The notes beneath the pieces were generated by a model. That model was given only the letters and a program-made list of their open reading frames with translations. It searched no databases and was not told the DNA's origin. The position numbers were made by a program, and so were the translations under genes. From an uncultured Lachnospiraceae bacterium (GTDB lineage Bacteria > Bacillota > Clostridia > Lachnospirales > Lachnospiraceae), in the NCBI GenBank assembly GCA_946534145.1, contig CAMNCH010000001.1:32089-96088 (forward strand): a stretch of DNA of 64,000 nucleotides. The letters run 5' to 3'. Of the stretch, positions 2,359 to 12,360 are shown in pieces (within the stretch, counting starts at the first letter, position 1; every line of letters begins with the position of its first letter).

Positions 2359-4563
2359 GTGAAACACGTTAAAGCGTTACTCGCTTTTTTGACATTGCTT
2401 ATCATGGCGTCGGGAGTGTCGGGATGCTCGCATGACGGTGGTTCTGCCGATGATAAGGCTTCTGCCGACGCAGATAAAACAGGCTCCTTTGTCTTAGAGG
2501 ACGACGGAGTCTATTTGGCGACCATAAGCGGGATAAGTGTAAGTGACGAAGATGTTCAATATGCACGATTTGCTTTTGCAAGGGACGGCAAAGTTTATTT
2601 TATTGTTTCGGTGATGGATGAGGAAACCGGGGACAGTACGGACTGTCTGAGATGCTTTGATGAGGTTACCGGGGAGATTGTGGGAGAAGATGTTTATTTT
2701 ACCGATGAAGAGGAAGAATTGAACGTCTTTGACATTGCACCCTGCGGTGATGACGGATACGTTTTTTTCGCCATGAATTATCCCGATAAGTGGCTGGGGA
2801 AATGTTCTTTGGACGGCAAGGTGATACTGAAAAAGAAGTTAAGTGACATCCCCGAGATAGGCTCCGGAGAGGTTCCCCGCGGCGGAATTGTATGTGACGG
2901 AAAGAATACGTACATAAGGCTTGACAAAAAAGTCGTTGCTCTTAACGAGGAGTTTAAGTATATCGATACGGCTGCCAAATTCGACATAGGTGGAATATGC
3001 GCGGGAGACGACGGGCTTTTGTATAGCGTGGATTTTTTAAGCAACAATATGAGCACCTTCGACCCGAAGACCTGCAAATATGAGGAGGGAATCAAAAAGA
3101 TTCCGAGAGCCAATGAAGTCTTTAAAGGCGGCCCGGGAGAAATACTGATAACCAATAATTCAACCGTAAAAAGCTATGATATTGCAACGGGCTGTATTAC
3201 AAATCTTTTTAATCTGATAGATGTGGATATCAATTCGCAGATTTTCAAATCGGTGTACAGGGATGACGAAGGCGATTTACATATTCTTTATCAGGATTAC
3301 GGCTCTTTTGCCGACGGTTCGGAAGGTGTCTGCTGCGCGAAGGTTAAAAGGTACGATGCGGCGGATGCTCCGGAGCAAAAAGTAATAAGATTTGCCTGCT
3401 ATTATCTTAACAGTGATATTAAAAACGTAATAGTCAGATTTAATCAGTCCCATCCCGATGTCAGAATCAAAGTCAGGGCTTACATGGATGATTACGTGGA
3501 AAAAGAAGACATACTTGCGGCCTTTGACAAGGATATCCTCGATAATGAAAAATTCGATGTGGTGATGCTCCCTTACGAGAATGTTAAGAAGTATTCCTCC
3601 AAAGGCTTTTTCGAAGATCTGATGCCTGTAATGGAGAATGATTCTTCTTTTGACTTAAACAAATATTACGAAAACATCATTTTTGCCACAAAAGAAGGAG
3701 AGAAACTTTATACATTTACCCCCGGAGCGATAATAAGCTGTTACCTTGCGGATTCGGAAGTATTCGGGGACAAAGAAAAACTTACCATTTATGATATGGC
3801 GGAGGCCAGAAGCAAATATCCCGATATACCGTTTATCAATAACGGGGACAGGGATGAGGTCTTTGCGGCATTATTGAAGGATGATATACGTGCTTATGTG
3901 GGAGACAAAGAAGGCAAGTACAATTTTGATACCAAAGAATTCAGGGCACTTTGTGAGTTTGCGGCTTCTTTTCCCGACTGGACCGATGAATACTCCGAGA
4001 AATACTCGTGGGACAATGTTTCCAATGAAAATGTGAAAGATGGCAAAGAAATAATCAGAAAAGTAACGGCCTCCATGCCGTCGGATTATCTTTTAAACAT
4101 GAAAATCTGCGGAAAGAAGTTCCGGATTTACGGCGCGGATACCCGGAACGTAAAAGGTTATGTGCTTTTGCCGTCCGATTCTTTCGGCATTCATTTTAAA
4201 AGCGAGCACAAAGAAGAAGCATGGGAGTTTATCAAGGCTATAGCCGACAGAGAACCGATGCTGTCGTGGAGTATTTTTTCGGCAAACAAAGATACTTTTG
4301 AAAAGTGCCTTACAGAGCTGCGGGAAGAGGGCGTCAATATCATGGTGGACGAAGTCTTATACGAAATAAAAGCCACAGATGAGAATGCGGCTTTATTAAG
4401 GGACATGATAGAGAATGCCGAGGTTGCTAAGACTTTGGACGGGCCGGTTATGGATATAATCGCAGGAGAAATGCCGGCGTATTTTGCAGGTGAAAAATCT
4501 TTGGATGAGACCATAAAGATTATTCAAAAGAGGGTTAATCTTTACGTCGAAGAAAACAGATAA
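2359..4563 (+). CDS. Tandem paralog of the preceding large solute-binding lipoprotein
   Basis: GTG start after GAGGGG. Lipobox GVSGC. Same architecture; shared LEDDGVYLATI, HKEEAWE and KSLD..IK..Q.RVNLY motifs. Confidence 0.8.
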   Translation: MKHVKALLAFLTLLIMASGVSGCSHDGGSADDKASADADKTGSFVLEDDGVYLATISGISVSDEDVQYARFAFARDGKVYFIVSVMDEETGDSTDCLRCFDEVTGEIVGEDVYFTDEEEELNVFDIAPCGDDGYVFFAMNYPDKWLGKCSLDGKVILKKKLSDIPEIGSGEVPRGGIVCDGKNTYIRLDKKVVALNEEFKYIDTAAKFDIGGICAGDDGLLYSVDFLSNNMSTFDPKTCKYEEGIKKIPRANEVFKGGPGEILITNNSTVKSYDIATGCITNLFNLIDVDINSQIFKSVYRDDEGDLHILYQDYGSFADGSEGVCCAKVKRYDAADAPEQKVIRFACYYLNSDIKNVIVRFNQSHPDVRIKVRAYMDDYVEKEDILAAFDKDILDNEKFDVVMLPYENVKKYSSKGFFEDLMPVMENDSSFDLNKYYENIIFATKEGEKLYTFTPGAIISCYLADSEVFGDKEKLTIYDMAEARSKYPDIPFINNGDRDEVFAALLKDDIRAYVGDKEGKYNFDTKEFRALCEFAASFPDWTDEYSEKYSWDNVSNENVKDGKEIIRKVTASMPSDYLLNMKICGKKFRIYGADTRNVKGYVLLPSDSFGIHFKSEHKEEAWEFIKAIADREPMLSWSIFSANKDTFEKCLTELREEGVNIMVDEVLYEIKATDENAALLRDMIENAEVAKTLDGPVMDIIAGEMPAYFAGEKSLDETIKIIQKRVNLYVEENR

Positions 4564-4758: not shown

Positions 4759-5835
4759 ATGAAAAAAATTGTATCACTTATGCTTGCGTTAGTGATGGTT
4801 GCTTCTCTTTGCACCGGTTGCGGTGAGAAGAAAGCAGACGGCACCTATGAGATCGCACTTGTTACAGACGTTGGTAACATCGATGACAAGTCCTTTAACC
4901 AGGGTGCATGGGAAGGCGTTAAGAAGTACGCTGAAGACAACAAAAAGTCTTACAACTACTATCGTCCTTCAGAGGACTCTACCGAAGCTCGTGTAGAGAC
5001 CATCAAGCAGGCTATTGACAAGGGCGCTAAGGTTGTTGTTTGCCCCGGTTACTTATTCGAAGATGCTATCTACGAAGTACAGGACAAGTACGCTGACGTT
5101 CAGTTCTTACTTCTTGACGGCGAGCCTCACAATGCAGACTACTCCGATTACAAGACCGCAGCCAACACCCACAACATCCTTTACAAAGAAGAGCAGGCCG
5201 GCTATCTTGCAGGTTACGCAGCAGTTAAGGAAGGCTACAGAAAGCTTGGTTTCCTTGGCGGTATGGCAGTTCCCGCAGTTATTCGTTACGGCTACGGCTT
5301 CGTTCAGGGTGCTAATGATGCAGCTGTTGAACTTGGCGTAGAAGGCGATGTTTCCATGAAGTACTGGTACTGTGGCGGATTCGCTCCCAGCGATGACATC
5401 AAGACCAAGATGTCCGGTTGGTATACAGCAGGCACAGAAGTAGTATTCTCCTGTGGCGGCGGTATCTACCTTTCCTGTACCGCAGCAGCAGAAGCAGCAG
5501 GCGCTAAGGTTATCGGCGTTGACGTTGACCAGTCCGCAGAATCTGCTACCATTATTACTTCAGCTATGAAGGAACTTGCTAACTCAGTAGTTTTGGCACT
5601 TACCGATCTTTACAAGAACGGTGGCACATGGCCCGCAGACCTTGGCGGAAAGACTTCCGTACTCGGCGCAGTTGAAAACTGTGTAGGCCTTCCTACAGCT
5701 ACATGGAGCCTTAAGAACTTCTCCGTTGACGAATACAAGGCATTATTCGAAGACGTTAAGAGCGGAAAAGTTGCTATTTCCAATTCTACAGAAGCAGCTC
5801 CCGATGTTAAGATTTCTGTTGATTATCAGGAGTAA
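4759..5835 (+). CDS. BMP-family (PnrA/BmpA-like) purine/nucleoside-binding lipoprotein
   Basis: Lipobox LCTGC; ALVTDVGNIDDKSFNQGAWEG, YKEEQAGYLAG, VIGVDVDQ. Confidence 0.93.
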   Translation: MKKIVSLMLALVMVASLCTGCGEKKADGTYEIALVTDVGNIDDKSFNQGAWEGVKKYAEDNKKSYNYYRPSEDSTEARVETIKQAIDKGAKVVVCPGYLFEDAIYEVQDKYADVQFLLLDGEPHNADYSDYKTAANTHNILYKEEQAGYLAGYAAVKEGYRKLGFLGGMAVPAVIRYGYGFVQGANDAAVELGVEGDVSMKYWYCGGFAPSDDIKTKMSGWYTAGTEVVFSCGGGIYLSCTAAAEAAGAKVIGVDVDQSAESATIITSAMKELANSVVLALTDLYKNGGTWPADLGGKTSVLGAVENCVGLPTATWSLKNFSVDEYKALFEDVKSGKVAISNSTEAAPDVKISVDYQE

Positions 5836-5862
5836 TCCTTTCAGGGTTTAAGTAAAATACAC

Positions 5863-5903
5863 GGAGGATGTTGCAACATTGTTTGGCGGCATCCTCCTTT
5901 TTT
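5863..5903 (+). terminator. Intra-operon hairpin/terminator after the BMP gene
   Basis: GGAGGATGTTGC ... GCGGCATCCTCC followed by TTTTTT. Confidence 0.7.
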
Positions 5904-5918
5904 CCAGAAGAGGTATGT

Positions 5919-7469
5919 ATGAGCGATTATGTAATTGAGATGCTGAACATCACCAAAAGATTTCCCGGTATTGTAGCCAATGACAATATCACCCTGCAGC
6001 TTAAAAAAGGTGAGGTTCATGCTCTGCTGGGGGAGAACGGCGCAGGCAAGTCTACGCTTATGAGCGTTTTATTCGGACTTTACCAGCCGGAAGAAGGATG
6101 TATTAAGAAAAACGGTGAAGTGGTCAAGATTAACGACCCCAATGATGCCAATGCGCTTCATATCGGTATGGTTCACCAGCATTTTAAGTTAGTCGAGTGT
6201 TTTTCCGTTCTCGACAATATTATTCTGGGCGTTGAGCCCAACAAGATGGGCTTTCTTCAGAAAAAAGAAGCCCGTGCGAAAGTACTTGAATTAAGCGAAA
6301 AATACGGGCTTAAGGTAGATCCCGATGCCCTTATCGAAGATATATCGGTAGGTATGCAGCAGCGTGTAGAGATTTTAAAGATGCTTTACCGCGAGAATGA
6401 AATTCTTATTTTCGACGAACCTACCGCAGTTTTGACTCCTCAGGAAATCGACGAACTCATGGAAATCATGAGAGGCTTCAAGGCTGAGGGCAAATCCATT
6501 CTTTTTATCACACACAAATTAAACGAAATCATGGCAGTTGCAGACCGTTGTACCGTACTTCGTAAGGGTAAATACATCGGTACCGTTAACGTTGCCGATA
6601 CCACCAAAGAAGAACTTTCCAAGATGATGGTAGGCCGTAACGTTAACTTCAAGGTAGACAAATGCGACTGTAAGCCCGGCGAAGTTGTATTTAAGGCAGA
6701 ACACGTTACCGTACCTTCCAAGCTTCACAAGAAGAATGCGGTCAATGACGTTTCTTTGGAAGTTCGCGCAGGCGAGATAGTATGTCTTGCGGGTATCGAA
6801 GGCAACGGCCAGACCGAGTTTGTACAGGGTATCACCGGTCTTACCAAGATGTCTGCCGGCCGTATCGAGCTCCTGGGCAAGGACATTACCAATGCCAGCA
6901 TTCGTGAAAAATCCATTATGGGTATCAGCCACATTCCCGAAGACAGACACAAACATGGACTTGTGCTTGACTACTCCTTGGAACAGAACTTGGTGCTTCA
7001 GCAGTACTGGGAGCCCCAGTTCCAGCACCACGGCTTTATTAAACAGCAGGCTGTAAGAGAGTACGCTGAGAAGCTTATTGAACAGTTCGACGTTCGAAGC
7101 GGACAGGGCCCCATCACCACAGCCCGCAGCATGTCAGGCGGTAACCAGCAGAAAGCCATTATCGCCCGCGAAATCAGCAAAGATCCCAAGCTTTTGGTGG
7201 CTGTTCAGCCTACCAGAGGTCTGGATGTAGGTGCTATAGAATACATTCACAAACAGTTAGTCAAAGAAAGAGACGAAGGCAAAGCAGTCCTTCTTATTTC
7301 TCTTGAACTTGACGAAGTTATGAATGTCAGCGACAGAATACTTGTTATGTATGAAGGCGAAATAGTGGGAGAATTCGATCCCAAGACCGTTACGGTTCAG
7401 GAGCTTGGTCTTTACATGGCCGGCGCCAAGAGACAGGACGGCAAAACCGGCAGGAAGGAGGAAGCTTAA
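5919..7469 (+). CDS. Nucleoside/sugar ABC transporter ATP-binding protein (tandem NBD, NupA-like)
   Basis: GENGAGKST Walker A, FDEPT, second half MSGGNQQK and QPTRGLD. RBS GAGG supports ATG 5919. Confidence 0.93.
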   Translation: MSDYVIEMLNITKRFPGIVANDNITLQLKKGEVHALLGENGAGKSTLMSVLFGLYQPEEGCIKKNGEVVKINDPNDANALHIGMVHQHFKLVECFSVLDNIILGVEPNKMGFLQKKEARAKVLELSEKYGLKVDPDALIEDISVGMQQRVEILKMLYRENEILIFDEPTAVLTPQEIDELMEIMRGFKAEGKSILFITHKLNEIMAVADRCTVLRKGKYIGTVNVADTTKEELSKMMVGRNVNFKVDKCDCKPGEVVFKAEHVTVPSKLHKKNAVNDVSLEVRAGEIVCLAGIEGNGQTEFVQGITGLTKMSAGRIELLGKDITNASIREKSIMGISHIPEDRHKHGLVLDYSLEQNLVLQQYWEPQFQHHGFIKQQAVREYAEKLIEQFDVRSGQGPITTARSMSGGNQQKAIIAREISKDPKLLVAVQPTRGLDVGAIEYIHKQLVKERDEGKAVLLISLELDEVMNVSDRILVMYEGEIVGEFDPKTVTVQELGLYMAGAKRQDGKTGRKEEA

Positions 7470-7471
7470 TC

Positions 7472-8635
7472 ATGAAACAGTATTTCAAGAGTAAAGGCTT
7501 CATAACCGTTCTTGCTTCGGTTATATCCATTCTTGTGGGTCTTCTTATCGGCTTTATTTTGCTGATAGTATTCAATCCCGCATATGCGCTTGGCGGACTT
7601 GGCAGCATCATCACCAAAGGCCTTTCAAGTTCAGACAAATTTGCAAAAGTTTTGTATCAGGCGGCTCCCCTTATTATGACGGGTCTTTCCGTAGGCTTTG
7701 CTTTTAAGACCGGTCTTTTCAACATCGGCGCTACCGGACAGTATACCGTCGGTGCGTTCTGTGCACTTGTGGCAGGCGTACAGTTCCGGTTACCCTGGTG
7801 GGTATGCCTTATCGCAGCCATGATAGGCGGAGCGGTTTGGGGCTTCATCCCCGGCATCTGTAAGGCACTCTTTAACGTTAACGAAGTTATTACATCCATC
7901 ATGTTTAACTGGCTCGGCCTGTTCATGGTTAACTTACTTCTTAACAACATGCCCATGATGCTTGCCAATTACTGGGGCGCTTCCAACAAAGACCGTACCG
8001 CGGCTCTTGCCTCGGCCAATCCTTCGGCCATCATTCCGAAGCTGGGCCTTGACAAACTCTTTGATTCCAACTACATGAATATTTCAATATTCATTGCGGT
8101 TTTGATAGCTGTTTTAATCTTCATCATTCTTGAGAAGATGACCTTCGGTTACGAATTAAAGGCCTGCGGCTTCAACAAAGACGCCAGCATTTACGCAGGT
8201 ATCAATGCCAAAAGAAACATCGTTCTTTCAATGGTAATCTCCGGTGCCCTTGCAGGTATCGGCGGCGGCATCTACTACCTCAGCGGTACCGCCCAGTACA
8301 CCATTGTTAAGTCCCTTCTTTCCATGGGCTTTAACGGTATCCCCGTAGCACTTCTCGGTGCATCAAGCCCCATCGGTATCATCTTTGCGGCATTGTTTAT
8401 TTCCTATATTCAGGTAGGTGGAGAAGCCCTTCAGCCCGAATATGCGAAAGAAATCATCGACATTATCATTGCAGTTATTATTTACCTGAGCGCGTTCTCA
8501 CTTCTTGTTAAGAACATTCTCGGTAAGTTCATTAAGACCGACACCGGCAACGTTAATGCGGAGGGTCCTGCCAAAGAACCTCCCAAGCCAGAACCGGAGA
8601 AGGCCACTGAAGAGAAAGGAGGGAACGAGCAATGA
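7472..8635 (+). CDS. Nucleoside ABC transporter permease (NupB-like)
   Basis: GLFNIGATGQ, NEVITSIM, GFNGIPVALLG; multiple hydrophobic segments. Confidence 0.92.
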   Translation: MKQYFKSKGFITVLASVISILVGLLIGFILLIVFNPAYALGGLGSIITKGLSSSDKFAKVLYQAAPLIMTGLSVGFAFKTGLFNIGATGQYTVGAFCALVAGVQFRLPWWVCLIAAMIGGAVWGFIPGICKALFNVNEVITSIMFNWLGLFMVNLLLNNMPMMLANYWGASNKDRTAALASANPSAIIPKLGLDKLFDSNYMNISIFIAVLIAVLIFIILEKMTFGYELKACGFNKDASIYAGINAKRNIVLSMVISGALAGIGGGIYYLSGTAQYTIVKSLLSMGFNGIPVALLGASSPIGIIFAALFISYIQVGGEALQPEYAKEIIDIIIAVIIYLSAFSLLVKNILGKFIKTDTGNVNAEGPAKEPPKPEPEKATEEKGGNEQ

Positions 8636-9627
8636 GCTGGACATCAATATTAGCCGATCTTATCGGCGCCACAATCCTTTTTGCGGTACCCCTTCTTTTG
8701 GTAGCTCTCGGCGGTATGTTCTCAGAGCGAAGCGGTGTTATCAACATCGCACTTGAAGGTATCATGATAGTAGGTGCGCTGTGCAGCTGTCTTACCCTCG
8801 TGGGACTTGACAAGTCAGGCTTCGGCGCGGCTCATCCCCAGCTTGGTATGTTAATCGCTATCCTGGTGGCTGCGGCTTCCGGAGCGGTATTCTCACTGCT
8901 TCTTGCTTTTGCCTCCATCAACCTTCGTGCCGACCAGACCATCGGCGGTACAGCCCTTAACATGCTGGCACCCGCATTTGCAATCGTTCTTACCTGGGCG
9001 GTTCAGGGACAGGGTCAGACCACCATTTTAATCCCCACCTGGACACGTATCACTCAGGACAATTTCGGAATCGAGAAGGCAGATACTTTCTTCCAGAACT
9101 TAATCTTTAAGAGCTTTTACCTTACAACCGTTGTAGCGGTAATCCTCTTTATCTGTGCATACGTGCTTATGTACAAGACCCGTTTCGGATTAAGACTTCG
9201 TTCCTGCGGTGAGCATCCTCAGGCAGCGGATTCCGTAGGTATCAACGTATTCAAGATGAGATACGCAGGCGTTATTATTTCCGGATGCCTCGGCGGTATC
9301 GGCGGTCTTGCATTTACGGTTGCAGCCGGAAGCGGATTCCAGTCCTCCGTAGCAGGTTACGGTTTCCTTGCTTTGGCCGTTATGATTTTCGGTAACTGGA
9401 AGCCTTTCACCATCCTTGGTGCATCCTTGTTCTTTGCACTCTTTAAGATTATCGGTTCCTACAGTGACAGCATTCCGTTCCTGCCAAGCTTCAAGAACGT
9501 TAACTCAAGCGAGTATATTTACCTTATGCTCCCTTATGTTGTTACCATGATAGTGCTGATTCTTACATCCAAACATTCACGTGCACCCAAAGCCGAAGGT
9601 ATTCCTTACGACAAGGGCACAAGATAA
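8632..9627 (+). CDS. Nucleoside ABC transporter permease (NupC-like)
   Basis: SERSGVINIALEG, GLRLRSCGEHPQAADSVG, GYGFLALAVMIFGNWKP; ATGA overlap. Confidence 0.92.
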   Translation: MSWTSILADLIGATILFAVPLLLVALGGMFSERSGVINIALEGIMIVGALCSCLTLVGLDKSGFGAAHPQLGMLIAILVAAASGAVFSLLLAFASINLRADQTIGGTALNMLAPAFAIVLTWAVQGQGQTTILIPTWTRITQDNFGIEKADTFFQNLIFKSFYLTTVVAVILFICAYVLMYKTRFGLRLRSCGEHPQAADSVGINVFKMRYAGVIISGCLGGIGGLAFTVAAGSGFQSSVAGYGFLALAVMIFGNWKPFTILGASLFFALFKIIGSYSDSIPFLPSFKNVNSSEYIYLMLPYVVTMIVLILTSKHSRAPKAEGIPYDKGTR

Positions 9628-9640
9628 ATACTGTAATTAC

Positions 9641-9679
9641 GAGGCCGGGACGCGCAAGCACCCCGGTCTTGTTTTTTTT
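9641..9679 (+). terminator. Intrinsic terminator
   Basis: GAGGCCGGG...CCCGGTCTT stem followed by a T8 run. Confidence 0.8.
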
Positions 9680-9744
9680 ATGTTAATGATAACAACTTAT
9701 AATGATTATGTTTGGGGGATTTATTGTGTTTAAGGGAATTGTTG

Positions 9745-11574
9745 ATGAATCAGAGTGAATACTTCACAAAAGAAATCGGAAGAATTGACGAGGACTGTCA
9801 GACAAAGCTTCATGAAGAGATAGACAAGTCCAATCTTGAGAACTTCAAAAAAATCAGAAATCTCGGCATTACCCATGTTTTAGTAATACTTGCGGTTCTG
9901 GCACTTACTGCTTTTACCCTTTATGTTGTGGATAAAAGGGGCTTTTTCGCAGTGTGTTTTTTGGCTGCGCTTCTGGAAGTCCTTATAGTATGCAGTCTCT
10001 GCAAATCCCTTAAAAAAGCTATTTTAAGCCACAGGGACAAAGAAAACTCAATCTTTAAAAACGCCATAGGCGAAATAACGGAAGTAGCCAGAAACGAAAG
10101 AAAAAAGGACTATTTAAAAAACAGCTACATCGAGGAACTTTCTTACGATATCGACATACCCTTAAGTGCCATTATAGGCTTAAGCGATAAGATTTTCAGA
10201 GATTCCACGGAAATGAACATTATAGAGAGTGCGGCCAAACTCGGCGGAGTAATGGGCGCTCTGCATACCTACGTTAACGACCTTTGCATATCCTCAAGAC
10301 TGGGGCTTGATAAGCTTGAAATAAAAAATGCGCCTTACGACATAGGCATAATGCTCTGCGACATCGAAAATCTGGGCATTAAAGTGGCAGATGAAAAGGG
10401 CATTAAGCTAAACTTTGATATTAACAACGACATTCCCGCCATACTGATGGGTGATGAGAACCATATAGAGCTTATTGTTTTAAAGCTTATAGCCAATGCC
10501 TTAAAATACACCGACGAGGGAACGGTTACCCTGACGGTGGGCTTTGTGGAAGTATCGGACAAAGAAATTCTTTTAAACATTTCCGTCCAGGACACGGGCC
10601 GCGGCATAAAAGAGGAGGATCTCGAAAAGTTCTTTTCCAAGAACAAAACCGCCGAGGAAGCGCTGCTTGAAGGCGGCAGCCTTGCCATGTGCATGTCCAA
10701 AACCCTTCTTGAAAAGATGGATTCGGAATTAAGAGTAGAGAGTAAATTCACTCAGGGCTCGGAATTCCGCTTCATGGTCAAGCAGGAAGTCATAGACAAA
10801 ACACCCGTTGGAAAGCGCGAGGACGCCATTGCGAGACTTCGTAAAAAGGATATGCAGGAGAGAGGAATGACGGAAGAAACAGCCACACCTGCAACCGTCG
10901 CTCCGAAGGCAAAAGAAGAGCCCGCACCCTCACCGACACCCGTAAAAGAACCTGTCGCTCCGGCACCGGCCATAGAAGAACCTGCGGAAACGGACGACGT
11001 ATTCCTTAAGAAACTTGGCACCGTCAAGGATCTTTCCGTAACCGACGGCATTAAAAACGCAGGCTCAGAAGAAATATACAAAAAGGTCATCTCCGACTTT
11101 GCCGGCAGTGCCTTAAGCAAGGCTGACGATATAGAGATGCTTTTTGAAAAAGAAGACATCAGAAACTACACCATCGAAGTTCACGCGCTTAAATCCGCCG
11201 CCCGCATAATAGGTTACAAAAAACTGTCAAAACTGGCGGAAGCGCTGGAAGATGCCGGCAACGCAAACGACCTTGTGTGCATTAAAAATGCCACCGGCGA
11301 ACTTATTAAACTCTACAGAAATATTGCGGAAGAAATAGAAAAAGCCGAGGACGACGGCACGGAAAAAGAACCGATTGACGACGAAAGCCTTAAAGACGCC
11401 GTAAGAAGTCTTAAGGAATTTGCGGAAGTTTTTGATTTTGATTCCGTGGACTTTGTCATGAAAGAATTAAAGAAGTACCGAATACCCGAGGACTTTAAAG
11501 ATAAGTACTCAAAGCTTAAAACTCTTGTCGCACAGGTCGACAGGGATGCAATAATAGAATTGCTTAAAGAATAG
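9745..11574 (+). CDS. Membrane sensor histidine-kinase-like protein with degenerate H-box and C-terminal Hpt domain
   Basis: Two TM segments. H-box reads SYDIDIP rather than SHEIRTP. N box LIANALKYT, G1 DTGRGI, degenerate G2 GGSLA. Hpt VHALKSAARIIG. ATG 9745 preferred over TTG 9712. Confidence 0.8.
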   Translation: MNQSEYFTKEIGRIDEDCQTKLHEEIDKSNLENFKKIRNLGITHVLVILAVLALTAFTLYVVDKRGFFAVCFLAALLEVLIVCSLCKSLKKAILSHRDKENSIFKNAIGEITEVARNERKKDYLKNSYIEELSYDIDIPLSAIIGLSDKIFRDSTEMNIIESAAKLGGVMGALHTYVNDLCISSRLGLDKLEIKNAPYDIGIMLCDIENLGIKVADEKGIKLNFDINNDIPAILMGDENHIELIVLKLIANALKYTDEGTVTLTVGFVEVSDKEILLNISVQDTGRGIKEEDLEKFFSKNKTAEEALLEGGSLAMCMSKTLLEKMDSELRVESKFTQGSEFRFMVKQEVIDKTPVGKREDAIARLRKKDMQERGMTEETATPATVAPKAKEEPAPSPTPVKEPVAPAPAIEEPAETDDVFLKKLGTVKDLSVTDGIKNAGSEEIYKKVISDFAGSALSKADDIEMLFEKEDIRNYTIEVHALKSAARIIGYKKLSKLAEALEDAGNANDLVCIKNATGELIKLYRNIAEEIEKAEDDGTEKEPIDDESLKDAVRSLKEFAEVFDFDSVDFVMKELKKYRIPEDFKDKYSKLKTLVAQVDRDAIIELLKE

Positions 11575-11592: not shown

Positions 11593-12360
11593 ATGGAAAA
11601 ACGAGTTTTGTTTATTGGGGAAACGAATTCATTCATTGTAAATTCACTTAAGGACGGCTTAAAGGAACCGGGCTTTGAATGCCTTTTTTGCAAGCTTGAC
11701 GTAACCGACATAAGCAGACTTACGGACAAGCCGGACTTTTTCTTTATCTACGCGGACGAGCGTACCATTCAGGAAAAAGAAGCCCTTATATATGTGCGGG
11801 ACATATGCGTGGAAGAGGAAAAGAAAGTGTTCCTGGCAGGTTACGCGGAAGAACTTCAAGTCATTGAGGACATATTCCCTTCCGAATGCCTCGGCGGTCG
11901 TTTTGAGCGCCCCATAAACGTCAAAGAAATCGCCGAAACCCTTCTCTACGCAGTTGAGAACAAAGAATCTCTCGAAAGCAGAAAACACATCCTTCTTGTG
12001 GACGATTCGGGCACCATGCTTAGGACCATCAAAGGCTGGCTTGAGGGCAAATACCGCATATCCATGACCAATTCCGCAACCAGCGCAATAGCCTTTCTTG
12101 CGGTTAACGAGCCCGACCTTATTTTGCTCGACTACGAAATGCCCGTATGCTCCGGCCCCCAGATGCTTCAGATGATTCGCTCGGAGATTAAGACCGAAAA
12201 CATCCCCGTAATATTCCTTACAGCCAAAGGTGACAAAGAAAGCGTCGCCAAAGTTTTAAGCTTAAAACCCCAGGGTTACCTCTTAAAATCCATGAAGCCT
12301 TCACAAATTGTGGAAGCAATTGATAATTTCTTTGCAACACAGAAGGCAAAGGGTATATAA
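11593..12360 (+). CDS. Response regulator with two receiver-like domains and no output domain
   Basis: C-terminal REC: ILLVDDS, LILLDYEMP, FLTA, YLLK. N-terminal half is REC-like but lacks the acidic pocket (FIGET, FIYAD). Confidence 0.8.
   Translation: MEKRVLFIGETNSFIVNSLKDGLKEPGFECLFCKLDVTDISRLTDKPDFFFIYADERTIQEKEALIYVRDICVEEEKKVFLAGYAEELQVIEDIFPSECLGGRFERPINVKEIAETLLYAVENKESLESRKHILLVDDSGTMLRTIKGWLEGKYRISMTNSATSAIAFLAVNEPDLILLDYEMPVCSGPQMLQMIRSEIKTENIPVIFLTAKGDKESVAKVLSLKPQGYLLKSMKPSQIVEAIDNFFATQKAKGI

Follow-up and report, generated by a model that had tools for sequence, protein, structure and literature searches.

A conserved pseudo-histidine kinase with an intact Hpt domain in a Lachnospiraceae genus, probably an RcsD-like relay protein derived from a hybrid kinase

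What role in a phosphorelay is left to a membrane protein that has the fold of a histidine kinase, a tyrosine at the phospho-acceptor position and no receiver domain, and that carries an apparently intact histidine phosphotransfer (Hpt) domain at its C-terminus? The question is raised by a gene in a 64,000-nucleotide stretch of DNA from an uncultured Lachnospiraceae bacterium (GenBank assembly GCA_946534145.1, contig CAMNCH010000001.1, positions 32,089 to 96,088 of the forward strand), which as a whole we call the window and whose numbering we use throughout. The gene is an unbroken open reading frame (ORF) at 9745-11574 on the plus strand, encodes 609 residues, and is labelled in annotation pipelines only as 'Hpt domain-containing protein'; an earlier note, made from the sequence alone, described its product as a kinase-dead sensor. 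Based on comparison with its relatives, we consider it probable that this pseudokinase is a phosphotransfer protein anchored in the membrane, that it descends from a self-contained hybrid kinase and that, like RcsD, it is fed in trans and passes phosphate to the regulator encoded directly downstream.

Domains and motifs of the pseudokinase

The gene and the parts of its product are as follows.

9745..11574, plus strand: pseudo-histidine-kinase/Hpt gene; Pfam recognises HATPase_c and Hpt only
9862..10002, plus strand: membrane hairpin with hydrophobic segments at residues ~40-62 and ~66-86 (Kyte-Doolittle scan; AlphaFold2 helices 3-61 and 64-153)
10021..10314, plus strand: DHp-like helical hairpin with a dead H-box (alignments; no HisKA match)
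10435..10800, plus strand: CA-like (HATPase_c) domain (Pfam E-value 1.4e-15; predicted local distance difference test score, pLDDT, >90)
10858..10998, plus strand: Pro/Ala/Glu linker, predicted to be disordered, residues 372-418 (alignment; composition; pLDDT)
11020..11349, plus strand: Hpt domain with phospho-acceptor His480 (CAC, 11182-11184) in VHALKSAARIIG (Pfam; alignment; AlphaFold2)
11350..11571, plus strand: conserved C-terminal helical extension with an FDFDSVD...KYxxP motif (alignment; dN/dS 0.07-0.13)

The most probable start is the ATG at 9745 (MNQSEYFTKEIG...), which is also the start in the orthologs; an alternative TTG at 9712 would give a protein of 620 residues. (The Pfam span of HATPase_c, 239-350, is numbered +3 relative to the ATG 9745 start.) A cytoplasmic helix precedes the membrane hairpin, the two transmembrane segments are joined by a loop of four residues (DKRG) that leaves no room for an extracellular sensor domain, and the second segment passes straight into the DHp-like helix with no periplasmic domain; no PAS domain was matched by Pfam. 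A two-segment hairpin with a four-residue outer loop resembles intramembrane-sensing kinases such as BceS, and BceAB-S (8g3a) was among the fold matches of the pseudokinase.

The H-box of the DHp-like hairpin reads ELSYDIDIP (10135-10161) and places Tyr134 (TAC, 10144-10146) at the phospho-acceptor position, where the full hybrid kinases found at the same chromosomal position in related species (described below) align with (M/I)SH(E/D)IR(T/S)P; the phosphatase motif H-E/D-x-x-T/N is gone as well. Pfam gave no match to HisKA (PF00512) or Response_reg (PF00072) in the protein even at E<=1, and scanning all 2.6 Mb of the genome for HisKA (E<=0.01) did not return the gene. We looked for an alternative conserved acceptor His in the DHp region and rejected the idea, as H96 and H174 both vary in the alignment and no other conserved His was found there. 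In the CA-like domain the N box (Asn251, 10495-97, in LIANALKYT) and the G1 box (DTGRGI; DTGRG at 10591-10605) are kept, and N251, D283, G285 and G287 are invariant across 91 aligned homologs, a feature missed in the earlier note, as was the variability of the Tyr position among orthologs. Degeneration has affected the F box, ATP lid and G2 box (10630-10689): FFSKNK stands against xxPFER of the full hybrids and EGGSLAM against EG(T/S)GLGM, and the lid is three residues shorter. The tyrosine-bearing H-box and degenerate G2 box (GGSLA) pointed out previously were therefore read correctly, and the F box and the shortened lid add to them.

The linker contains 10 Pro, 9 Ala and 9 Glu among its 47 residues and occupies the place of the receiver (REC) domain of the positional orthologs, ~45 residues replacing REC in the alignment. 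Residues 378-413 have AlphaFold2 pLDDT values <50 and are thus predicted to be disordered. No receiver remnant was detectable in any frame of the linker DNA (best tblastn E-value 1.2), and the idea of a remnant hidden in another frame was rejected on this ground; that a linker stands in place of the receiver, as the earlier note proposed, agrees with alignment, composition, pLDDT and the missing REC match. The Hpt domain (PF01627) scores above its Pfam cut-off (E-value 2e-7; 31.6 bits vs 24.6), and its acceptor, which had been called intact, is invariant: His480 is present in 18/18 aligned relatives. It lies on what AlphaFold2 predicts to be a helical bundle (helices 442-468, 472-489, 492-506 and 510-535; pLDDT >90), so that by profile and by model the protein qualifies as an Hpt-domain protein. 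The C-terminal extension that follows is common to the Hpt-bearing hybrid kinases of the subfamily, including the paralogs of the same genome on contigs C56 and C1.

The AlphaFold2 model, built from the 91-sequence alignment (mean pLDDT 83), predicts confident DHp, CA and Hpt folds, and the best solved structures matched by Foldseek were the kinase cores of GacS, RetS, ETR1, ZraS, DivL and HK853. By sequence, the nearest NCBIfam models for the kinase-like core were TorS (130 bits), BarA (112) and ArcB (107), all far under their cut-offs. Measured against a competent HisKA-type kinase, the protein has the N and G1 boxes and lacks the acceptor His and HisKA profile and the F and G2 boxes; measured against a hybrid or unorthodox kinase, it lacks the internal REC between CA and Hpt. 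An HMM scan for these domains had been suggested in the earlier note; with Pfam it gave HATPase_c and Hpt without HisKA or Response_reg.

Shared losses in one genus and the three states of a chromosomal slot

Is this state a property of one sequence or of a lineage? Searches identified 15 ortholog clusters of the same architecture, 51-99% identical and all from one Lachnospiraceae genus; together with the loci they form a clade of 19 sequences (clusters at 90% identity; sources NCBI, ENA, JGI and Logan). In 19/19 members the H-box SH(E/D)IR(T/S)P is replaced by [Y/H/F/D/S]-[D/E]-x-x-x-P, a change that removes the acceptor His consensus together with the E/DxxT/N phosphatase motif, and likewise in 19/19 the F box is F-S/V-K in place of P-F-E-R, the ATP lid has a three-residue deletion, the HAMP-like segment is absent, and a variable Pro/Ala/Glu linker has taken the place of the ~120-residue receiver. 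The G2 box is G-x-S-[L/I]-[A/G/S] in place of G-x-G-L-G, its second glycine being Ser in 19/19. The acceptor codon is TAC or TAT in most members, TCG (Ser) in locus L009, and codes for Phe and Asp in two metagenomic proteins; since the residue varies (Y, H, F, D, S), the position appears no longer to be constrained to one residue.

Selection on the gene was estimated by the Nei-Gojobori method as the ratio of nonsynonymous to synonymous substitution rates (dN/dS) in the four pairs with unsaturated dS (window/L007, window/L008, L007/L008 and L002/L009), with the following ranges.

N-terminus and transmembrane segments: 0.07-0.15
DHp-like part: 0.05-0.06 (three of the four pairs; dS is saturated in L002/L009)
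CA-like part: 0.00-0.05
Hpt: 0.06-0.14
C-terminal helices: 0.07-0.13

For the whole gene the ratio is 0.08-0.13. Only the linker evolves fast (amino acid identity 0.5-0.7 among close orthologs), and across the clade the pseudokinases are 52-94% identical. The earlier note had asked whether the His-to-Tyr change is conserved in orthologs with dN/dS below 1: the ratio is indeed far below 1, but the Tyr itself is not fixed.

These data bear directly on the simplest alternative, that an ordinary hybrid kinase has recently become a pseudogene or has been garbled by a sequencing or assembly error. The Tyr codon TAC is one transition from the His codon CAC, and the genome is a metagenome-assembled genome (MAG) in 195 contigs, and the genomes compared here are MAGs as well. 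Nevertheless, the same state recurs in independent NCBI, ENA, JGI and Logan assemblies down to 51% identity, the frame is unbroken, the whole-gene dN/dS is low, and the losses are multiple and coordinated. Decay or artefact is hardly credible and is refuted by the shared losses, the dN/dS values and the coordinated motif changes. Because the losses are common to all 15 clusters and the dN/dS is low, we conclude from the comparison that the pseudokinase is maintained and is not a case of recent decay. Close orthologs with both His and REC, which would have spoken for decay, were not encountered, as the 51-99% identical orthologs all lack the His-box consensus and the REC; a qualification is that one 89% identical ortholog has a His in the degenerate box, and His and REC occur together only in the ~40% identical orthologs of sister species. 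That a conserved pseudokinase has kept a functional-looking Hpt, and is encoded just ahead of its likely receiver partner, is thus strongly supported by the comparative evidence.

We looked for a second lineage with HATPase_c and Hpt only, once with a single sequence and once with a profile of the clade, and found none in the top 120 hits of either search. Two 296-residue proteins that appeared to be Hpt-only (P0241 and P0242) were set aside, as they start inside the CA domain (MLLEKMGSELRVESK) on short contigs and look like truncated calls of pseudokinases like P0013. A search for related loci among genome contigs matched only an unrelated Treponema hybrid kinase.

The pseudokinase gene sits in what we refer to as a slot, in the order Bmp-ABC transporter, kinase slot, 255-residue regulator, (chorismate mutase), GH95, deacetylase, bactofilin, pyrH, frr, uppS and cdsA. 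This order is identical at the window and at the loci of the 53-93% identical orthologs L002, L003, L007 and L009, and at L005 the same order surrounds a complete HisKA+HATPase_c+REC+Hpt hybrid kinase of 779 residues (P0019). Such full-hybrid positional orthologs are ~40% identical to the pseudokinase over the whole alignment. When the regulator was used as a probe in 30 other species of the same GTDB genus, 16 orthologous loci were recovered, with the slot in three states (Pfam confirmation was obtained for one representative of each).

Full hybrid kinase: 725-781 residues; seven species, four with and three without a HAMP-like segment
Pseudokinase-Hpt: 609-622 residues; G000, G223, G202 and G206
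Hpt only: 196 residues; G213, and G201 as a partial gene at a contig end

In the three full hybrids that lack HAMP, the H-box is ISHDIR(S/T)P, and the Asp after the His is shared with the pseudokinases. The 196-residue stand-alone proteins, for which Pfam finds Hpt only, are encoded at L063 (G213:C2:53000-59500, minus strand, ORF ~3915-4505 of the reverse complement) and L067 (G201); the Hpt-only protein comes directly after rhamnose genes and before the 255-residue regulator. A rhamnose-utilisation block lies between the ABC transporter and the slot in the full-hybrid lineage (L005, 4408-7911; FGGY kinase, RhaA and class II aldolase) and in the Hpt-only lineage (L063; kinase and RhaA only), and is absent from the pseudokinase lineage.

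A maximum-likelihood tree of Hpt plus regulator, with two full-hybrid loci of the same genus as outgroup (regulators 51-53% identical to that of the window), places the pseudokinases in one clade (support 93/87) and the Hpt-only proteins in another (100/100), and two state changes suffice to explain it. From this tree we reconstruct the ancestor of the slot as a self-contained TM-(HAMP)-HisKA-HATPase-REC-Hpt hybrid kinase (TM, transmembrane) paired with the 255-residue regulator, a pseudoREC-REC protein (see below). The same comparison indicates that the slot has been reduced twice independently and to different degrees, with the Hpt-regulator pair retained both times. By the alignments, the pseudokinase clade has lost its entire REC, the HAMP segment, the acceptor His, the phosphatase motif and, within the ATP lid, the F and G2 boxes; judging from dN/dS, the folded parts that remain (the membrane hairpin, the DHp-like part, the CA domain with its N and G1 boxes, the Hpt and the C-terminal helices) and the regulator are under strong purifying selection.

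The regulator, candidate donors and the expression context

If the Hpt is functional, where would its phosphate go? The candidate is the gene that begins 19 nucleotides past the pseudokinase stop codon.

11593..12360, plus strand: 255-residue regulator with a tandem of pseudo-receiver (residues 1-128) and canonical receiver (131-250) (Pfam; AlphaFold2; Foldseek)

Its C-terminal half matches REC (PF00072) at 133-243 with 76.7 bits, and the receiver active site D137, D138, D180, T210 and K232 is complete and invariant in 68 homologs (the Asp180 codon is at 12130-12132). The N-terminal half has no Pfam REC match; AlphaFold2 gives it a (beta-alpha)5 order over residues 4-128, and in the Foldseek comparison the two halves align with PleD (its REC-REC' stem) and ShkA. 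By our own reading of the model it is a pseudo-receiver, with GE for DD and R106(-P107) for Lys. The regulator is 88-100% identical across the pseudokinase clade, far above the pseudokinase itself, and its dN/dS is 0.00-0.04 (0.00-0.02 for the four pseudokinase pairs). Judged by its sequence and position it is likely the phospho-acceptor of the Hpt, and since it has no output domain it would have to exert its effect by contacting other proteins. Lachnospiraceae have many members of this family, annotated merely as 'response regulator', and true orthologs are restricted to the genus: a family-level survey of 201 genomes with this regulator gave only paralog-level matches of 51% identity or less. 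In the genome of the window two paralogous cassettes (C1:20639-28086, which is ~4-11.5 kb upstream of the window start, and C56:1695-7662) combine an Hpt-bearing hybrid kinase with a ~256-residue pseudoREC-REC regulator, each followed by an HD_5/HD-GYP-type protein, one a 791-residue membrane protein and the other REC+HD-GYP; the cassette in the window has no HD-GYP neighbour. These HD-GYP neighbours hint that the regulator family feeds cyclic di-GMP turnover.

With its acceptor His, phosphatase motif and receiver lost and its ATP lid crippled, the pseudokinase would not autophosphorylate, and the steps from H1 to D1 would not be possible within it. His480 (H2) and Asp180 of the regulator (D2) are nonetheless perfectly conserved under strong selection, and on the simplest reading His480 would have to be charged in trans. 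Candidate donors are abundant. By intersecting HisKA, REC and Hpt scans and extracting ORFs we counted in this genome 8 Hpt-bearing ORFs, 28 HisKA matches above cut-off and ~17 hybrid kinases; only four of these hybrids include an Hpt, and ~13 are Hpt-less. The Hpt-less hybrids (an MSHEIRTP subfamily) stop right after the receiver (contigs C11, C6, C84, C88, C3, C64, C19, C2 (three), C4, C60 and C97), and their receivers are 35-48% identical to the one lost from the slot. D1 receivers are thus in large excess over H2 domains, ~13 Hpt-less hybrids standing against two free Hpt proteins, on C37 (C37:2843-3199, 118 residues) and C49 (140 residues), plus the pseudokinase-Hpt. The donors of phosphate to His480 would most likely be receivers of other hybrid kinases, some of these ~13 among them, and the Hpt would hand the phosphoryl group to Asp180 of the regulator, which is presumably co-transcribed. 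The conserved dead DHp/CA core would most likely serve as a docking or regulatory scaffold that holds the Hpt at the membrane, and it may bind a donor kinase, as in RcsD-RcsC and RetS-GacS, or a receiver, as in DivL. Because the Hpt-only lineage suggests that the core is dispensable for the basic relay, the core should add regulation or specificity. We may further speculate that it is an integrating platform which docks several of the ~13 Hpt-less kinases or senses a phosphorylated receiver, so that inputs are funnelled through one tethered Hpt into one regulator, and that the genus preserves a path from hybrid kinase to shared relay node to free Hpt; this extension is a tentative one.

Several observations weigh against a relay protein fed in trans. 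The free Hpts on C37 and C49 could serve the Hpt-less hybrids instead, and since many Hpt-less hybrid kinases in other bacteria end their relay at their own receiver, the presence of such kinases is no proof that they feed this Hpt. The hybrid on C11 is nearest to the ancestral type, its kinase and REC being 50-52% identical to P0017 and P0019; its orthologs are 74-75% identical in pseudokinase species, 63% identical in the full-hybrid G219, and missing from the Hpt-only G213. With no complementary phyletic pattern, it was rejected as the partner in a clean fission. What the earlier note assigned to the protein, the role of a 'hub' or 'dimerisation partner', is not supported in that form and stays conjectural, ~13 donors being available and C11 having given no clean signal. 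In addition, the intact N and G1 boxes would still permit some nucleotide binding, and the 89% identical ortholog L008/P0008 (a contig from Logan SRR28204444) has CAC (His) at the acceptor position. That His sits in an otherwise identical dead H-box (ELSHDIDIP) accompanied by degenerate F and G2 boxes and no receiver; by sequence it is an apparent reversal from Tyr to His.

The invariant N-box Asn and G1 DxGxG, and the His of this ortholog, could also be taken as signs of a non-canonical active kinase that autophosphorylates on another residue, or is trans-phosphorylated in a heterodimer, and then transfers phosphate directly to the Hpt or regulator. We hold this to be very improbable given the varying H96 and H174 and the lack of any other conserved DHp His, the Ser for the second G2 glycine in 19/19, the lost F box and shortened lid, and a region that HisKA models do not recognise; moreover, His-to-His transfer that bypasses a receiver is not known in HisKA-type kinases.

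Phosphate might instead flow in the opposite direction. As the His-Asp steps of phosphorelays are reversible, a regulator phosphorylated otherwise (by another kinase, another Hpt or acetyl phosphate) could be drained, buffered or sequestered at the membrane by the tethered Hpt. The two free Hpt proteins and four Hpt-bearing hybrids of the genome, the lack of a complementary pattern for the tested donor candidate C11, and a regulator far more conserved than the pseudokinase (88-100% vs 52-94% identity) would all suit such a sink. Phosphate taken up would need an outlet, yet the pseudokinase has lost both receiver and phosphatase motif, and the tight operon coupling of Hpt gene and regulator in all three states, the Hpt-only one included, fits a cognate donor-acceptor pair; we regard a sink as unlikely.

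In the alternative to which we give a similarly low weight, the protein was repurposed as DivL was: the dead DHp/CA core would bind a phosphorylated receiver, or heterodimerise with an active hybrid kinase, to switch that kinase, and the Hpt would be secondary. The DHp-like and CA-like parts are constrained as much as the Hpt (dN/dS 0.00-0.06), the Tyr stands at the His site as it does in DivL (PMC4211667), and the fold is nearest to the cores of GacS, RetS and DivL, of which RetS works by binding the DHp of GacS (entry 7n0e). Against this, residues other than Tyr occur at the site in orthologs (Y, H, F, D, S), the degeneration of the F and G2 boxes has no counterpart in DivL, and a sister lineage has dropped the entire core and kept Hpt and regulator, which makes the core dispensable for the basic function of the module. 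Such repurposing would be compatible with trans-fed relay as an added layer.

The genes upstream are separated from the pseudokinase by a terminator.

4759..9627, plus strand: Bmp/PnrA-type ABC transporter (Pfam; binding protein 4759-5835, ATPase 5868-7469)
7472-8635 and 8632-9627, plus strand: ABC transporter permeases (Pfam)
9639..9679, plus strand: intrinsic terminator of the ABC operon (11-pair hairpin, then U8)

The terminator has a long loop, was missed in a consensus scan and was revealed by RNA folding (-23 kcal/mol, z -4.38; 0/200 shuffles equally stable). It splits the ABC operon from the pseudokinase gene, which bears out the separate expression context described in the earlier note. 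TATAAT at ~9698-9703 is a possible -10 element, and a consensus promoter scan found no convincing -35 upstream of the gene. In each of its three states the slot has the ABC transporter as a syntenic neighbour, and the order is kept in L002, L003, L005, L007 and L009; it lies upstream in every species examined, directly at the window, L002, L003, L007 and L009, and with the rhamnose genes between at L005 and L063. By analogy, a transporter-coupled input for the pseudokinase is conceivable, but there is a strong terminator between the operons. Further upstream, adjacent genes at 54-2324 and 2359-4563 encode unusually large products (756 and 734 residues) whose SBP_bac_1/8 match is confined to the C-terminal halves, the N-terminal halves (~350 residues) having no Pfam match; the pair is also found upstream of the L002 ortholog.

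Comparison with RcsD, DivL and other kinase-like proteins

The earlier note called this an unusual relay design; precedents exist, however, in the pseudo-kinase RcsD with its Hpt and in the Tyr of DivL (PMC7418988, PMC4211667). Our literature search was of limited reach, and its negatives do not prove absence; it gave no description of a protein like this beyond the Enterobacterales and no study of the Lachnospiraceae module, and RcsD was the sole pseudo-kinase/Hpt phosphotransfer protein that it turned up. The route from a kinase to such a protein could not be observed so far. In one gut or rumen-type Lachnospiraceae genus an intact hybrid, a pseudokinase-Hpt and a bare Hpt occupy the same slot, each followed by the same regulator; in this series of living stages the origin of a probably RcsD-like relay protein may be traced step by step. 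These natural alleles open the questions of which part was lost first, why the dead DHp/CA was kept and how the relay was rewired to other kinases, and they draw attention to an uncharacterised and very common Lachnospiraceae family of ~255-residue pseudoREC-REC regulators.

Among better-known proteins, the ArcB/BarA/TorS/EvgS-type kinases are the closest sequence relatives by NCBIfam, and the positional orthologs in sister species share their HisKA-HATPase-REC-Hpt architecture; the pseudokinase differs from them in having neither H1 His nor D1 receiver, and in its incomplete ATP lid. RetS of Pseudomonas is a non-canonical kinase core that contacts the DHp of another kinase, and GacS (7z8n) and RetS (6dk7, 6dk8 and 7n0e) were the top structural matches by Foldseek; RetS, however, keeps its receivers and has no Hpt, and the likeness is only that of the general DHp-CA fold (19-24% identity). 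DivL of Caulobacter crescentus has a Tyr for the acceptor His and neither kinase nor phosphatase activity, its DHp/CA fold being repurposed to bind a phosphorylated receiver and control another hybrid kinase (PMC4211667). The pseudokinase shares with it the Tyr at the His site and the retained DHp/CA fold (DivL 4q20 was among the Foldseek matches), whereas in DivL all kinase motifs (H, N, G1, F and G2) are kept, the Tyr is conserved, PAS domains are present and an Hpt is absent. With a variable Tyr, degenerate F and G2 boxes and no PAS, the pseudokinase falls outside a DivL type defined by conserved Tyr, intact motifs and PAS.

The closest match in design is to RcsD (YojN), which sits in the inner membrane, combines a kinase-like region devoid of the acceptor His with an inactive HATPase and a C-terminal Hpt, has no receiver (PMC7418988, PMC12189002, PMC3762810), and has been termed a pseudo-histidine kinase (PMC3762810). 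Its Hpt takes phosphate from the receiver of RcsC, a separate hybrid kinase, and gives it to the regulator RcsB (PMC7418988, PMC12189002). Membrane anchor, His-less kinase-like region, lack of an own receiver and C-terminal Hpt are common to both proteins, a resemblance of design and not of membership; further, signalling in Yersinia pestis is rewired by expression of a free RcsD-Hpt (PMC10191623), and this naturally truncated, Hpt-only RcsD is paralleled by the Hpt-only species of the Lachnospiraceae genus. The differences are considerable. The NCBIfam model NF007907 matches the pseudokinase within its kinase-like core alone, with 56.9 bits (cut-off 634), which is below TorS, BarA and ArcB. 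RcsD has large periplasmic and cytoplasmic PAS-like IgaA-binding domains and the pseudokinase has neither; nor does it show any sign of an ABL domain, and IgaA/RcsF-type partners are not evident. It comes from another phylum (Gram-positive-type Lachnospiraceae), the regulator paired with it, a tandem pseudoREC-REC, lacks a DNA-binding domain, its candidate partner kinases are not adjacent, and an ancestor-like intact form survives in its sister species. Based on this combination of shared design and separate descent, we propose by analogy that the pseudokinase most likely works like enterobacterial RcsD and arose independently of it, by convergence.

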